Below, piece by piece: positions 52,390 through 60,768 of a DNA stretch of 64,000 bases. Where the stretch lies: positions 2,849,121-2,913,120 of the forward strand of contig CP104013.1 of assembly GCA_025839675.1 (NCBI GenBank). Direction: 5' to 3'. The notes below the pieces were generated by a model. The model was not told the origin of the DNA and ran no database searches. It saw nothing but the letters and a program-made list of their open reading frames with translations. The stretch comes from Candidatus Lokiarchaeum ossiferum (GTDB lineage: Archaea; Asgardarchaeota; Lokiarchaeia; Sigyniarchaeales; Promethearchaeaceae). Position numbers and translations under genes: made by a program. Every line of letters starts with the position of its first letter. The first letter of the stretch is position 1.

Positions 52390-53301
52390 ATGGATGCTGA
52401 AGCAAAAAAAAGGTTAATTGAACGGAGTTTTAAAGAAATTGAAGAAAAAAAGGCCCTTTTCAATAATAATCCAGAGAATTCCACCCAATATTTTGAAAAA
52501 TTAAAAGATTTAATCACTTTTGAAGGTAATTTGGACCTCTCAAATTATCGAAAAAAGTATCTAGAGAGGAGATTTCTTCATCGCCTTTCTTTTTTGAACA
52601 TTGAATCCTACAAGAAATATATTGATTTTGCAAAAGATAATCCTAAAGAAATATTGGAAATGAAAGATTCCCTTACCATCCATACTACCGAATGGTTTCG
52701 GGATAAAACCCCTTTCGAATTATTAAGAAAAAACATTCTTCCTAGGATATTAAAAACAAAAAAACTCGCAGCAGACAAAACTTTCAGAATTTTTTCCGCG
52801 CCTTGTAGCTCAGGGCAAGAACCATACACATTAGCCATGATTTTGGATGATATCCGTAGAGAACTTGGCATTACTACACCAATAGAAATTTATGGGTGTG
52901 ATGTAGAACCGAAAATTGTCGAAAAGGCGAAAGATGGAAAATATTTTGCTCAGTATATGAAAGGAATTCCAGTAGAATTTGTGGATCGTTATTTTACACC
53001 ATTACCCGATGATTGGTTTGAAATTAAGCATTCTATTAAGCGGATGGTGAAATTTTTTGTCCAAAATTTGTTCAAACCTCTTCCTTCATGGATCAAATCA
53101 ATGGACGTGATACTCTGCCGGAATTTATTAATTTATATTGATCGCGACCACCAATTGCAAGTTATTCAGAATCTATCAAAAATTCTACGCAAAAATGGAT
53201 ATTTGATGCTAGGAAAAACTGAAAGTCTGCTTATCCTAAATACTAAAACAGATTTTATCGCGGAAAATGCCCGTGAACATCTATATCAATACACCCCATG
53301 A
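52390..53301 (+). CDS. CheR-type protein-glutamate O-methyltransferase-like SAM methyltransferase (orphan; no other che genes in the window)
   Basis: FRIFSAPCSSGQEPYTLAMIL (like CheR lRIWSAGCSTGEEPYSLAM) and an N-terminal all-helical CheR_N-like region. Confidence 0.7.
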   Translation: MDAEAKKRLIERSFKEIEEKKALFNNNPENSTQYFEKLKDLITFEGNLDLSNYRKKYLERRFLHRLSFLNIESYKKYIDFAKDNPKEILEMKDSLTIHTTEWFRDKTPFELLRKNILPRILKTKKLAADKTFRIFSAPCSSGQEPYTLAMILDDIRRELGITTPIEIYGCDVEPKIVEKAKDGKYFAQYMKGIPVEFVDRYFTPLPDDWFEIKHSIKRMVKFFVQNLFKPLPSWIKSMDVILCRNLLIYIDRDHQLQVIQNLSKILRKNGYLMLGKTESLLILNTKTDFIAENAREHLYQYTP

Positions 53302-55426: not shown

Positions 55427-56050
55427 TTATTCGCCTAATTCATCTAAGGAAAAACGTTCAGAAGAGGTGCCATCCTTAGTAATGGTCATAACATCCATTC
55501 CACTACCCACCATAGCATCTCGAGTCATACCGTTTTTAAGAAGTTTTTTCATTAATTCCACGCCTTTTTTAACGGTAAGGGTAGGTTTGTATTCGGCTTC
55601 CAGCATACCCGAGGCGAAATACATGGAATCACCAGCCATTCCGTAATCATCTTCGGTTAAACTACCACCTGCATCTAATGTATAAACATGACCATCTCCA
55701 TTTTCTTCCACACCTGCTATGACAATCATCACATAAAGAGGTGCCATTTTGCGTTGGTAGAGATAGTTTGCAACCATTTTACCCATCGCTTGGACCGAGA
55801 TCTTAAATCCTTCTCGCATCTCATAGATATTTGCTTGAGCTTGCATGATTCGGGCTAAGGCTTGGAAATCTCCAATTAATCCATAACAGGTCATAGCAAC
55901 TCGTCCGTCCTTGGTCAACGGAAAGATTTTGGCAACATTTTTATTATTCACTGTGTATCCATAGGTAGATCGAGTGTCATTACCTAAAACAACACCGTCT
56001 TTGCATCTAATTGCAACTCCGAAAGCACCTGGTATCCATATTTGAGCCAT
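55427..56050 (-). CDS. Proteasome beta-type subunit homolog lacking the N-terminal catalytic Thr (likely non-catalytic)
   Basis: Full-length similarity to archaeal PsmB (YGLIGDFQALARIM, LDAGGSLTEDDYGMAGDSMYFASGMLE, GMDVMTITKDG), but the mature N-terminus reads AFGVAIRCKDGVVL where TTTVGI is expected. An in-frame TGA two codons upstream of the ATG rules out a longer N-terminus. Confidence 0.7.
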   Translation of the reverse strand: MAQIWIPGAFGVAIRCKDGVVLGNDTRSTYGYTVNNKNVAKIFPLTKDGRVAMTCYGLIGDFQALARIMQAQANIYEMREGFKISVQAMGKMVANYLYQRKMAPLYVMIVIAGVEENGDGHVYTLDAGGSLTEDDYGMAGDSMYFASGMLEAEYKPTLTVKKGVELMKKLLKNGMTRDAMVGSGMDVMTITKDGTSSERFSLDELGE

Positions 56051-56402
56051 TATTTTTCATCTCGAAATTTTTTCAAATTCCTATACAAAGAAGTAATAAC
56101 AAACTGCTTTAATTTTTTTTGCCTTTGCAATTTAATATTAGTTTACTTTTCAAGAATAAAAAATTCCTTTTCACAAATCAAATTCAAAAATTTAATATTT
56201 TAATCAATCTAATGCTATCGATATTACCATAAAAATGATTTTGTAGGTTATTTTTGGTGAAATGAAGAATTTAGTTTACTCTTGGAATTCGATTGTAGAC
56301 TTAAGACTCTAGTTTAATATTTTGTATTTTAATATATGAATTTGTAGAAATAAATTTAGAGGAGCTGAAAGCTTTTTAGCTTTATACGACATCATCTATA
56401 TT

Positions 56403-57185
56403 ATGAAAACCTATCTCAAGGAATTCGAAAACATCGGGAAAGAATATGCAAATCAATTACAAAAGCAGATGAAGATTCGTTCAATTGATGATTTTGAAAA
56501 GTTTTCGTTAGAAGAAATCCACCAACAGACGAAGATAGATATGGAACGGCTCAAGCAATGGGCCGACGTGATTGATCTATATCATATTCCAGATTTAACG
56601 ACTCGAGAAGCAGAATTACTCTATTTCGCCAACATAAATTCAGTTCAAGAACTATCACACCGTCAAGCGATACGTATTTTCTATAAACTTCGTGAAATTG
56701 ATATAGAAACTTACCATATCATTCTTCAACTTCCGACATTTCAAAAAATTGAAAATTGGATAAATTTTTCAAAATTAATGACAAAACGGATAAAATTTGG
56801 ACAAAATATTCCAATTATCATGATCCCAGTGGTCGAATTTGATCACGCCAGTGAATTGAAGAATTTCAAAATTTTTACAGTAGAGGACTTTGTCCAAAAA
56901 AGCCCTATGATTTCAAATCTTCGAAAAAAAATCGGGATGTCGCGACACAATTTTCATATATTAGAAAATACAATAGATTTTATCAAAGTTGAAGGAATTG
57001 ATCTCTATTTTGCTAATCTATTTCTTCAAGTGGAAATCGAAGGGATCAACGATTTTTTATCTTTGAATAATGATGAAATCCTTCAAAAAGTTAAAGAGAT
57101 CCAGGATAATGATGAAAATTGTCCTGAAAAGTTAACTTTAAAACATATTGAGGAAATTAAACAAAAAATAATGGAGCAAAACTAA
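56403..57185 (+). CDS. Hypothetical protein with three helix-hairpin-helix-like (DUF4332-like) motifs
   Basis: FENIGKEYANQL, IPDLTTREAELLYFANINSVQEL and VEGIDLYFANLFLQ...INDFLSL fit the HhH pattern xxGIGxxxAxxL. 260 aa. The stop lies 1 nt before the next gene. Confidence 0.45.
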   Translation: MKTYLKEFENIGKEYANQLQKQMKIRSIDDFEKFSLEEIHQQTKIDMERLKQWADVIDLYHIPDLTTREAELLYFANINSVQELSHRQAIRIFYKLREIDIETYHIILQLPTFQKIENWINFSKLMTKRIKFGQNIPIIMIPVVEFDHASELKNFKIFTVEDFVQKSPMISNLRKKIGMSRHNFHILENTIDFIKVEGIDLYFANLFLQVEIEGINDFLSLNNDEILQKVKEIQDNDENCPEKLTLKHIEEIKQKIMEQN

Positions 57186-57186
57186 A

Positions 57187-60100
57187 ATGGCATTACCAGA
57201 TATATTAATTCAACTAACATACGTAATTATTGGAGTAATTGTATTTTTCATGGGATTTCTCTTAGTATATAAGAATTTGAAGAAAATCAATACAGTTGAG
57301 GGTGAAAAATTTAACGGTTCTGATTGGTTAGCCATGATTGGATTTGGATTGCTATTTGGCTTAGCAATGATTTTCATTGTGAATATCACTTTCGAGCTAA
57401 TATTACCAGTAGAAATTCCAAGTATCGCTGGATATGTCTTAATGATAATGTTAGGGGTACTTGTAATATATCCTCTGTGGGAAGTAATTTTCTTAGGGCG
57501 ACCCACAAGCGATTCAGTACATGATTTTCATAAGTTCTTGGAATCGAAAATATTAGATCGGTTTAAAGGAAAGGTGGCATATTTGGTATCTTTACTTATT
57601 TTCATAATCATCTATCTAGTTCCAATTATTATTATCAACCTAATTTCGAACGAACCTTGGCAGCAAATTGCATTTATTTGGTTCTTACTTTTTCCACTCT
57701 TCTTCTTAGCTTATTTTGCAGCTAATGGAACGGTTTCAGGAATTATAGCTAAAACTTATACAAATACAATCCCAGCCCGTGTATTGACCAAAGGAAAACT
57801 AGGAAATAAAAAAGTGATAGGTATAATAATGGTCGCTATAACTTGGATTCCTTTTATGCTAAATATCTATAATTTTGGAAATCCTATTTTGAAGGCAATT
57901 AGAGGCGTTGGAGAGATACCAACAGAATCTTCTACTAGTAGTCAGTTGGATAAATATAATGCATATATATCCCTATTTACTACAACAGTTTTTGGTATCA
58001 AAGGATTTTTCTCTAAATTCTGGAATAAGAAATCGAAAACAAAAACAATAGATTTTCTCTTTTCTGGATATTTAATGATTGGAATTGGAGTGAATATGTT
58101 ATTAAGTTTCGTGCAAATTGACCCTTCCGTCGTTGCTTCCATTTTTGATTCAATTCCAATCCCATTTATTGCGTCTTTAGGAAATGTCTTCTATAATTAC
58201 ACACTCTTATTACCAATAATTATAATTTCAAGCGGTATAACATTCGTTTATGGAATAATCAATCTTGTCCAAGTTAACTCAGATTTTCATTCGGATATTC
58301 GTCTTCAATCAACTACCAAAGCTTTTGGAAAAATAGATCTGGATAAAATGGTCGAAAGTCGTAACGAAATGCTAGAAGATCTGGAAAAAGGAAAACAAGA
58401 TAAAAAGAAGAAGGAAAAGAAGAAAAAATATGACTATGCAACCTTGTACAAATCACTTTTATTAGCTCCGAGTTATTCAAAATATGGAGTAGATCTTAAC
58501 GAACAAGTTCGACAAAAGGCGGCTCAATATTTATTCCTAATGTCGGTAGATGACAGAGAAATCGCACAGAAAATAATTGAATTCATTTTTGCAGTAACGA
58601 TTGAGAAAGATACAATCGAGAAGGATACAACAGAAATTCAAGAACAATATTACTTGAGCAAAGAAGCATTTGATGCTTTAGGAGAAATTGGGGAAATTTA
58701 TCCAGATTTGGTTATGGAACGCCTAATTAACGCATTAGAAATTGTTGATAATTATACTCAAAGATATATTTTGGATGCACTGGGTGATATCGGAGAAACG
58801 AAGGAGAACATGAAAGTAATTTTGTCCAAAATTCTCCCATTGTTTAGCAGTAAGCGCTATGATGTGCGACTCGCGGCATTCCAAGCTATGTCAGAAATGA
58901 TCTTGGAAGGAGATTCTTCGGATAAAGAATTTGTCAAGCTTGCCTTAGATGCAGTGTATACTGTCTTAAAAGATGATACTAATGAAGGGGCGATTGATAC
59001 TTGTTTAGAAGCTTTAGTAAAAATGAGTGCTCGGATTGCAGATGATATAGATATTGAAAAAATTATACCCTTTTTAACCTATTCCAAAGGGAAAGACCAA
59101 GATACCACAGATTTCATAATTCAGAATGCGATTGTTATCCTCAGTTATATGGTATATTATAATATGGCCCAGTTTACAGCAATTTTGGATAATTTAAAAC
59201 CATTTTTAAAGGATCAAAGAGATTTTATCCGATATGCTGCAGTAGATGCTTTGGGGAACTATATATTAAAATGTCCAGAAGATAAAATTGATGAAATTTT
59301 AGTGGAGCTATTGATTTTATCTACGAATGATGCTAATGATGATGTGGCTCATATAGCGACCGAAAGTATAGCGGAATTTTTGATCATGCATAAAGGATAT
59401 AAGATCACTATCGATAACCAAGCTATTTCGATTTTAGATTATTATATGAACGCATTGGTTTCAAGCAATGTTCAAGTTACTGAAAATGCGAGTGAGGCTT
59501 TAAAACAAATATCGCCATTATATGATGAAGATATTTACCCACAACTCGAAAAGCATTTGAAAAGTCAAGAAAACTTGGAACTAGTAAGGGATTGTTTGCA
59601 TGTGATTGCTGTCTCCGGAGTAGAAGAACATTTAAGCACCGATTTAGAATTGATCTACAGCTTGACAGAGCATGAGGATCCAAGTGTGCGAAGTGAAGCA
59701 ATTCTGACATTAGGATTTTTGGGAAAGAATAGACCTGAAATTAAACCCGAAGTAATTGTGAAATGTCTGGACGATAAAGATCCTCAAGTTCGTAGAGAAT
59801 CGATCTTTGCTTTAGGAAAAATTGGCAAGCAAAACCCAACGGCTGTGGTCCCTGTATTAATTCAAAAATTCTTCGAATTGGATCGCCACGATGAAGATAA
59901 GGTTAGTGAAGTAGAACTATATGCTGAAACCCTTGGGGAAATTGGAAAAGTGCACCCATCAAATGAAATCATAATCACATTGCAAAATGTGCTAATGGGT
60001 GATACTAATCCTTTCTCGAAGGATGTGATTGCAAGAGCCTTAGGAACCATTGGATATGGGATGATTCAATCCGGAAAAGCTATAAAACGGATTGAAAATG

Positions 60101-60768
60101 ATGCATTCTACAATCAAATCTCATGGTTACGATCCGCTGATAAGGCAGAATATACAATTGGTAATCTTATCATTATTTTCTTAGAAGCATTACAATTGAA
60201 AGGCATTCCAGATTCAGTAATGAATGAAATTTCCGATTCGATTCAAGATTTGCTCCCAGTATTTCTTTTTGCACAAAAAGATGAGAAGAAACCAAAGAAT
60301 GAAGATGTTATTTTAGAAACTATTAAATCTTTGCTTGCTCAAGCGTATTATGCAAATTATAACAATGAAATCTTGGAAACCATCGATCGAGTAGATTCTT
60401 TACTGAGTTTCAAACGGTTTTTCAAAACAGATGATGAGATCCTCCAAAAGCAATTCATATTCTACGCCACGCAATATACTGCGGATGGGAAGCAATTCCA
60501 TGATCAGGGTGAAGTCTTTTTACTTTTGAAAGATCAAGATCCTGAATATCTGAAATATGCGCTAAAATCTTTTGAAATCTCTCAGCAATTATCGCCTTAT
60601 GAGTTTTATACCCCCAATGCAGTGCTTCAAATGGGAATAATCCATAAGACCTTAAACAATAGAGAATTGGCAAAGCAGAAATTTGAGGAAGCACTTGAAA
60701 TCTTCACTTCATTGGATGAAGTGGATAAAATGCGCGAATGCGATGCAAATTTGAAAGAATTAAGTTAA
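57187..60768 (+). CDS. Large membrane-anchored protein (1193 aa): about 11 N-terminal TM helices, six or more PBS-lyase HEAT-like repeats, C-terminal TPR
   Basis: HEAT-like repeats RYILDALGDIGE, VRLAAFQAMSEM, IRYAAVDALGNY, VRSEAILTLGFLGK, VRRESIFALGKIGK, VIARALGTIGYG. Also contains a poly-Lys linker (KGKQDKKKKEKKKKYD) and a tandem IEKDT repeat. Confidence 0.6.
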   Translation: MALPDILIQLTYVIIGVIVFFMGFLLVYKNLKKINTVEGEKFNGSDWLAMIGFGLLFGLAMIFIVNITFELILPVEIPSIAGYVLMIMLGVLVIYPLWEVIFLGRPTSDSVHDFHKFLESKILDRFKGKVAYLVSLLIFIIIYLVPIIIINLISNEPWQQIAFIWFLLFPLFFLAYFAANGTVSGIIAKTYTNTIPARVLTKGKLGNKKVIGIIMVAITWIPFMLNIYNFGNPILKAIRGVGEIPTESSTSSQLDKYNAYISLFTTTVFGIKGFFSKFWNKKSKTKTIDFLFSGYLMIGIGVNMLLSFVQIDPSVVASIFDSIPIPFIASLGNVFYNYTLLLPIIIISSGITFVYGIINLVQVNSDFHSDIRLQSTTKAFGKIDLDKMVESRNEMLEDLEKGKQDKKKKEKKKKYDYATLYKSLLLAPSYSKYGVDLNEQVRQKAAQYLFLMSVDDREIAQKIIEFIFAVTIEKDTIEKDTTEIQEQYYLSKEAFDALGEIGEIYPDLVMERLINALEIVDNYTQRYILDALGDIGETKENMKVILSKILPLFSSKRYDVRLAAFQAMSEMILEGDSSDKEFVKLALDAVYTVLKDDTNEGAIDTCLEALVKMSARIADDIDIEKIIPFLTYSKGKDQDTTDFIIQNAIVILSYMVYYNMAQFTAILDNLKPFLKDQRDFIRYAAVDALGNYILKCPEDKIDEILVELLILSTNDANDDVAHIATESIAEFLIMHKGYKITIDNQAISILDYYMNALVSSNVQVTENASEALKQISPLYDEDIYPQLEKHLKSQENLELVRDCLHVIAVSGVEEHLSTDLELIYSLTEHEDPSVRSEAILTLGFLGKNRPEIKPEVIVKCLDDKDPQVRRESIFALGKIGKQNPTAVVPVLIQKFFELDRHDEDKVSEVELYAETLGEIGKVHPSNEIIITLQNVLMGDTNPFSKDVIARALGTIGYGMIQSGKAIKRIENDAFYNQISWLRSADKAEYTIGNLIIIFLEALQLKGIPDSVMNEISDSIQDLLPVFLFAQKDEKKPKNEDVILETIKSLLAQAYYANYNNEILETIDRVDSLLSFKRFFKTDDEILQKQFIFYATQYTADGKQFHDQGEVFLLLKDQDPEYLKYALKSFEISQQLSPYEFYTPNAVLQMGIIHKTLNNRELAKQKFEEALEIFTSLDEVDKMRECDANLKELS

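Follow-up and report, generated by a model that had tools for sequence, protein, structure and literature searches.

What can a proteasome β-type subunit contribute to an archaeal cell when the catalytic threonine at its N terminus is absent? The question is raised by a gene at positions 55427-56050, on the minus strand, of a 64,000-nucleotide stretch of the genome of Candidatus Lokiarchaeum ossiferum (contig CP104013.1 of assembly GCA_025839675.1, positions 2,849,121 to 2,913,120), referred to here as the window. Thr1 acts as nucleophile twice over, in proteolysis and in the autocatalytic removal of the propeptide, and the encoded protein carries an alanine at this position. The missing nucleophile, and its continued absence under purifying selection, make a non-catalytic role the most plausible one; at the level of sequence, the assignment as a non-catalytic β paralogue is well supported by inference. 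We further consider it likely that the protein is a β-type subunit of the L. ossiferum 20S proteasome with a structural part in mixed β rings.

Identity of the protein and its active-site positions

The coding sequence, taken from the list of open reading frames, begins with ATG and encodes a proteasome β-type subunit of 207 aa (55427..56050, stop codon included; this and all other features of the gene lie on the minus strand). The protein is 100% identical to database entry P0001, "Proteasome subunit beta [Candidatus Lokiarchaeum ossiferum]", from the closed genome. In Pfam, the PF00227 Proteasome domain covers residues 12-190 (55481..56017) with 151.2 bits against a cut-off of 22.4 (E = 3.3e-44), and the α-specific N-terminal family PF10584 has no match in the protein, in which only 8 residues precede position 1. 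Among the NCBIfam models, the β model TIGR03634 scores 172 bits, short of its equivalog cut-off of 224 bits, versus 67.9 bits for the α model TIGR03633. The two HslV models reach 12.9 and 12.4 bits against cut-offs of 137 and 158. We rejected an HslV-, Anbu-, or BPH-type identity because the HslV scores lie far under their cut-offs and the top PDB and database matches are all 20S β subunits.

The predicted structure agrees with this assignment. AlphaFold2, given the family alignment, produced a model with a mean predicted local distance difference test (pLDDT) score of 86.9 and a predicted template modeling (pTM) score of 0.87, with residues 1-4 alone below a pLDDT of 50. It has the β-subunit order of secondary structure elements and superposes on solved β subunits. 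A Foldseek comparison with the PDB returned 20S β chains as all of the top 50 matches, the best of which was the β chain of 6Z46 (38% identity; template modeling (TM) scores of 0.80/0.90), ahead of the β subunit of Thermoplasma acidophilum.

The residue register was set by the mature Archaeoglobus fulgidus β chain 1j2q_H, in which chain residue 4 corresponds to residue 12 of the query; other archaeal chains agree. In this register, Ala9-Phe10-Gly11-Val12-Ala13-Ile14 (AFGVAI) stands opposite TTTVGI, and Ala9, encoded by GCT at 56024..56026, occupies the position of the catalytic Thr1. The place of the propeptide is taken by an extension of 8 residues, MAQIWIPG (56027..56050), that ends in Pro7 and Gly8, the equivalents of the family-invariant Pro(-2) and Gly(-1). 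The equivalents of Asp17 (Asp25, codon GAC at 55976..55978), Arg19 (Arg27), Lys33 (Lys41, codon AAA at 55928..55930), Gly47 (Gly57), and Asp166 (Asp178) are all retained. The second triad is incomplete: Asp166 is kept, with Ser129 replaced by Asp141 and Ser169 by Val181. Relative to the active PsmB subunits of T. acidophilum (1PMA), A. fulgidus (1J2Q), and Methanocaldococcus jannaschii (3H4P), then, the L. ossiferum protein shares the fold, the length, and Asp17, Lys33, Gly47, and Asp166 at 32-37% identity, but has Ala for Thr1, Asp for Ser129, and Val for Ser169.

A sequence-only reading of this locus had proposed that the protein aligns over its full length with archaeal β subunits, that AFGVAI falls where mature subunits read TTTVGI, and that the Asp17 and Lys33 equivalents seem to be preserved. 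The Pfam, NCBIfam, and PDB alignments bear out the first of these proposals, the register from the PDB chains confirms the second, and Asp25 and Lys41 answer to the third. The losses at Ser129 and Ser169 went unmentioned in that reading and are added here. The same reading had named closest homologues of the Anbu or HslV type as evidence that would tell against it, and here we found 20S β subunits instead.

The alanine-bearing family in Asgard archaea

To describe the family to which this protein belongs, we used two samples. The first comprises the best 120 database homologues, which are 53-92% identical to the L. ossiferum protein; the second comes from scanning a single genome for each species, which gave 98 loci, and the best 80 of these were analyzed, L. 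ossiferum itself not being among them. The named members of the first set belong to Promethearchaeota, Harpocratesius, and Hod-, Thor- or Hermodarchaeota, and the 80 loci are all from Asgard archaea, including the cultured Promethearchaeum syntrophicum MK-D1 (72% identity). When 1.84 billion cluster representatives were searched exhaustively, this Asgard Ala1 family formed a single cluster at 50% identity, with 318 bits; the next relative outside it, P0121, is of a Gly-Ala-Thr type and, at 37% identity, reaches 147 bits. The family spans Loki, Thor, Hermod, and Hod lineages and was recovered as monophyletic in 99.5% of neighbor-joining (NJ) bootstrap replicates.

The absence of Thr1 is a property of the whole family. 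All 120 homologues begin 8-9 residues ahead of the same motif, and Pro(-2) and Gly(-1) are present in every one of them. Ala occupies position 1 in 119 of these homologues, the one exception having Ser; in the species-representative genome loci the position is Ala in 75 of 80 and Ser in 5. Asp17, Lys33 and Gly47 are each found in 120/120 homologues, Arg19 in 119/120, and Asp166 in 118/120. Position 2 is more variable (Val in 54/120, Cys in 53/120, Phe in the L. ossiferum protein). Because positions 129 and 169 are mostly Thr or Ser among the 120 homologues, the Asp and Val found there in L. ossiferum are derived. For close orthologues, the ratio of nonsynonymous to synonymous substitution rates (dN/dS) is ≈0.02-0.04, at dS values that approach saturation. 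The Ala1 state is conserved Asgard-wide under strong purifying selection. The invariant Pro(-2)-Gly(-1)-Ala1 motif, together with the retained Asp17, Lys33, Gly47, and Asp166, is best read as a putative structural constraint on that region of the protein.

This conservation bears directly on whether the alanine could be an artefact. A single G-to-A change separates GCT (Ala9) from ACT (Thr), such that a misread base, a wrongly chosen start codon, or a decaying pseudogene might give the same appearance. However, the protein is identical to the one deposited from the closed genome, position 1 is Ala or Ser in 120/120 homologues and in 80/80 genomes, and the reading frame is intact with a dN/dS of ≈0.03. 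The sequence-only reading had held that an in-frame stop two codons 5' of the ATG excludes a longer N terminus, and a TGA is indeed located at 56057..56059, with two sense codons between it and the start (tga aaa ata ATG). Residues 1-25 contain no Thr that an alternative start might expose. A sequencing error or another start that would restore the threonine, which the same reading had named as its possible undoing, is contradicted by these data, and we regard an artefactual origin of the alanine as extremely improbable.

The serine-bearing orthologues deserve separate mention. These five loci (L031 10001-10606, L040 10001-10606, L047 711-1316, L055 10001-10606, and L073 64-669) have the motifs PGSCA, PGSTA, or PGSCG and keep Asp17, Lys33, Gly47, Thr129, Asp166, and Ser/Thr169. 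They could be self-processing β subunits with a serine nucleophile, or they could reflect neutral exchange between Ala and Ser. An engineered yeast β5-T1S subunit is processed and active (PMC4792962), and Cys2 occurs in 53 of the 120 homologues, as noted above. Family members might still be proteases through another nucleophile, be it Ser1 in some lineages, Cys2 after a cleavage, or activation in trans, and the five Ser1 orthologues with their full Asp17/Lys33/Thr129/Asp166/Ser169 set speak in favor of this idea. The L. ossiferum protein, however, reads Ala1, Phe2, Gly3 and also lacks Ser129 and Ser169, and the T1A exchange left every tested subunit inactive and unprocessed (PMC4792962). We rejected Cys2 as the nucleophile given the Val at position 2 in 54/120 homologues and the Phe in L. 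ossiferum. Proteolysis by another residue is thus very unlikely, and as a possibility it concerns chiefly the five orthologues with Ser1.

Several further observations concern the variety of β-like proteins around this family. Two Asgard metagenome-assembled genomes each contain two Ala1 β copies that are ≈87% identical, JBHLKB (L019 876-1481 and L038 6555-7160) and JBHLNK (L021 279-884 and L049 381-986); the pairs stem either from a duplication inside the family or from a bin that mixes strains. The closest outgroup, P0122 (197 aa, from a JGI metagenome), is 40% identical and is the NJ sister of the family in 33-50% of replicates. It is itself an Ala1 β protein with Thr2 (MSLPTGATVVG) and has Leu at position 19, and its lineage may be the source of the Asgard Ala1 family. 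P0226 from Njordarchaeales and also P0257 belong to an Asgard β-like family without Thr1, Asp17, Arg19, and Lys33. The existence of such proteins means that Asgard genomes carry several grades of degenerate β paralogues.

A proposed place in mixed β rings

To consider what a β subunit with Ala1 would do, we compared the protein with two systems in which subunits without a functional Thr1 have been studied. In yeast, the T1A mutation deprives β1, β2, and β5 of both autolysis and activity, and a remnant of the propeptide stays at the substrate channel, where Gly(-1)-Ala1 has a fixed geometry (PMC4792962). The L. ossiferum protein has Gly(-1)-Ala1 in common with these engineered subunits. They are, however, laboratory mutants with long natural propeptides, whereas the L. 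ossiferum state is natural, ancient, and selected, and only 8 residues precede Ala1. Because Thr1 serves both proteolysis and propeptide removal, the Ala1 protein should neither cut substrates nor remove its own extension. The 8-residue extension would then probably stay lodged at the subunit's own defunct substrate channel, as the propeptide remnant does in the engineered T1A subunits, and the expected N-terminal tryptic peptide of the unprocessed protein is (M)AQIWIPGAFGVAIR.

The second system is the proteasome of Sulfolobus acidocaldarius. There, the β subunit Saci_0662 (PsmB1) assembles with α into a 28-mer that is catalytically inactive, and activity appears only after Saci_0909, a second β subunit, enters at a lower, sub-stoichiometric ratio (PMC4569737; bioRxiv 10.1101/774273). 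Saci_0662 is therefore an experimentally inactive β subunit that acts as a ring scaffold (PMC4569737; bioRxiv 10.1101/774273; PDB 6Z46), and hetero-heptameric β rings have been described for Sulfolobales (bioRxiv 10.1101/2025.05.09.653063). The inactive Saci_0662 chain of 6Z46 is the best structural match of the L. ossiferum model, and Saci_0662 is likewise the best PDB sequence match of the single protein (122 bits). With the family profile it scores 191.8 bits versus 163 bits for the active A. fulgidus β subunit, whereas two control profiles of Thr1-bearing β subunits rank A. fulgidus over Saci_0662. The likeness extends to length, architecture, and the absence of Thr from canonical position 1. 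The Thr of Saci_0662, exposed in Saci_0662ΔN, is chain residue 2 and aligns at canonical position 2, not 1. Saci_0662 differs in its Thr2 and Glu17; the Asgard Ala1 family instead has Asp17, with Val, Cys, Ala, or Phe as residue 2, and carries a Gly-Asn-Asp motif that is characteristic of it. Identity of Saci_0662 to the L. ossiferum protein is only 36-38%.

Comparable proteins with a Gly-Ala-Thr ("GAT") motif occur in different phyla, among them Nitrososphaera (P0130), Bathyarchaeota (P0144), and Fervidicoccaceae/Desulfurococcales (P0181). The GAT β subunits of Thermoproteota resemble the Asgard family in Gly(-1)-Ala1, often Pro(-2), and the retained Lys33, Gly47, and Asp166, but differ in having mostly Thr2 and Glu17, at 31-37% identity. 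NJ joins all subunits without Thr1, including the Thermoproteota Ala1 proteins, with a support of <10%.

A speculative precedent also exists for Asgard archaea. A 2017 MEROPS survey counted five T1 homologues in Odin, two in Heimdall, four in Thor (AB_25), four in Loki CR_4, and three in S. acidocaldarius, described the T1 families as expanded in Asgard genomes, and used Figure 2 to depict both active and inactive β subunits of a Lokiarchaeote, a depiction offered expressly as speculation (PMC5753285). In the literature searched, this note was the only mention found of an Asgard β subunit without Thr1. Inactive archaeal β subunits are thus already known, experimentally in Sulfolobales and by anticipation in 2017 for Lokiarchaeota, and the L. 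ossiferum gene is an uncharacterized further member. The sequence-only reading of the gene as a 20S β subunit that lacks the nucleophile, and is conserved in that state, holds up; its accompanying premise, that archaeal proteasomes normally have only active β subunits, is contradicted by Saci_0662, by the Thermoproteota Ala1 subunits, and by the Asgard Ala1 family itself.

The role of the L. ossiferum protein is probably like that of Saci_0662 beside Saci_0909 in Sulfolobus and of β3, β4, β6, and β7 in eukaryotes. It would probably assemble with a Thr1-bearing β subunit encoded elsewhere in the genome to give mixed heptameric β rings between α rings. Within such a ring, the Ala1 subunit would serve as scaffold and as the neighboring wall of the catalytic pockets, helping to build them, and its share of the ring would set how many active sites a particle has, diluting their number.

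Genomic context gives a different picture of the Ala1 gene and of a Thr1-bearing Asgard β family. The latter (P0145 type) has Gly-Thr-Thr, Asp17, and Lys33, is found under the labels Heimdall, Hod, Hermod, and Thor, and is encoded directly upstream of an α gene (L081 3001-4220, L082 338-1664, L083 3001-4332, and L084 3001-4332) within a conserved cluster of leuS, β, α, metallophosphoesterase, cyclophilin-like, and Band7 genes. Unlike this β-α arrangement, the Ala1 gene is always solitary across the 80 Asgard loci.

Several results weigh against placing the protein in a mixed-ring 20S proteasome. Using tblastn with β and α queries, we found no second PF00227-type gene, β or α, in the 64-kb window, and no other proteasome gene within ±10 kb of the orthologue at the 80 Asgard loci, 1.17 Mb in all. 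A homology search that took P0123, the closest Thr1 representative, as query gave proteins of DPANN, Thermoplasmatota, and Methanophagales and no Asgard sequence, and one with P0145 gave no match attributed to the known Loki chromosomes, such that neither search yielded a Thr1 β subunit from L. ossiferum or any other Lokiarchaeon. P0493, P0470, P0515, and P0075 trace to assemblies JBHLKZ, JBHLPQ, JBHLRO, and JBHLSB, none of them shared, and across the records looked up the P0145-type Thr1 β subunit was matched to no Ala1-bearing assembly. In addition, the near-complete catalytic scaffold of most members and Ser1 in 5/80 loci leave room for residual or lineage-specific activity, and the entry of the L. 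ossiferum protein into a 20S particle is proposed by analogy.

These data would also suit a protein that forms an inactive homo-oligomeric ring or particle of its own, alone or with α, outside the canonical 20S core. Such a particle might, for example, serve as a platform for assembly, compete with or regulate α rings, or act as a non-proteolytic binding chamber. Consistent with this alternative, the Ala1 gene is unlinked to proteasome genes at the 80 loci while the Thr1 Asgard β gene sits in a β-α operon, Saci_0662 with α alone yields an inactive 28-mer in vitro, and the scaffold of Asp17, Lys33, and Gly47 that the protein retains could have a role in binding. On the other hand, the only tested analogue, that of Sulfolobus, has its inactive subunit within mixed rings beside an active one, and the overall β sequence and fold are fully conserved, with no extra domain or insertion that points to a new partner. 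We consider both a separate particle and these roles for it unlikely. Proteasomes are generally present in archaea, and from this, together with the T1 count for another Lokiarchaeote, we infer that a catalytic β subunit coexists with the Ala1 protein in L. ossiferum, the arrangement that incorporation into mixed rings would require.

The immediate neighbors of the gene are not related to the proteasome. On one flank are genes for a CheR-type chemotaxis methyltransferase with CheR_N and CheR domains (52390-53301, plus strand; E = 1.8e-50), a CitMHS transporter, and a DUF3795 protein. On the other flank, both divergent from the β gene, are genes for a DUF4332 protein of 260 aa (56403-57185, plus strand) and for a membrane protein of 1193 aa that combines a multi-pass hydrophobic region at its N terminus with HEAT repeats at its C terminus (57187-60768, plus strand). 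One base separates these two genes, and they are probably co-transcribed.

Relation to the eukaryotic β ring

The non-catalytic β subunits of eukaryotes are β3, β4, β6, and β7, and the Asgard Ala1 family raises the question of whether they share its ancestry. Among eukaryotic PDB chains, the single L. ossiferum protein best matched β6/PSMB1 (76.9 bits), β5 (72.6 bits), and β3 (70.4 bits), and the family profile best matched β3 (113 bits), β6 (109.9 bits), and β5 (109.6 bits), a lead of 3 bits for β3 over β5. With control profiles of Thr1-bearing subunits, β5 and β2 came first and β3 was absent from the 60 matches listed. The seven human β sequences (PSMB1-7) used for further comparisons were each validated by a full-length match to the human PDB chain of the same name, at ≈2.2 bits per residue. 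Human β3 scored 112.8 bits against the Asgard Ala1 profile and 124.9 bits against the Thermoproteota Ala1 profile, versus 74.6 bits against Asgard Thr1 and 96.0 bits against Euryarchaeal/DPANN Thr1 profiles. After removal of 34 catalytic-motif columns, the identity of β3 to the Asgard Ala1 family was 26%, versus 20-22% to other groups, an excess of about 5 percentage points.

In its architecture, β3 (PSMB3) is collinear with the Asgard Ala1 family from residue 7 to ≈200, has an equally short N-terminal extension, and is without a working Thr1, with Gly-Gly-Ala at that place; identity is only ≈25-28%, and the resemblance is functional. A split between the archaeal Ala/Gly1 types with human β3, β4, β6, and β7 on one side and all Thr1 subunits on the other had 58% NJ bootstrap support. 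β3 fell in the sister group of the Asgard Ala1 family in 25% of NJ replicates when all columns were used and in 42% when columns were masked, figures that come from short sequences and distance trees, below whose resolution such deep relationships lie. The same β3 data are explained by convergence and by the attraction of long branches among inactive subunits that evolve fast. It is therefore a tentative and rather doubtful proposition that the eukaryotic non-catalytic β subunits, and β3 in particular, have as their archaeal sister or ancestor the Asgard Ala1 family, perhaps together with the Ala1 subunits of Thermoproteota. If it were true, the split between catalytic and non-catalytic β subunits would predate eukaryogenesis and would have been inherited rather than invented by eukaryotes. 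The importance of the family would grow if a rigorous phylogeny tied it to β3 or β6, or if Lokiarchaeia had no Thr1 β subunit.

Independent of this ancestry, the cultured Asgard archaea L. ossiferum and P. syntrophicum, along with many uncultured relatives, have a dedicated and strongly conserved β subunit without the nucleophile. The 20S proteasome of these archaea is therefore probably built from mixed rings, as in Sulfolobus, a step toward the eukaryotic design. The family should thus be useful for reconstituting an Asgard proteasome and for tracing the origin of the seven-membered eukaryotic β ring.

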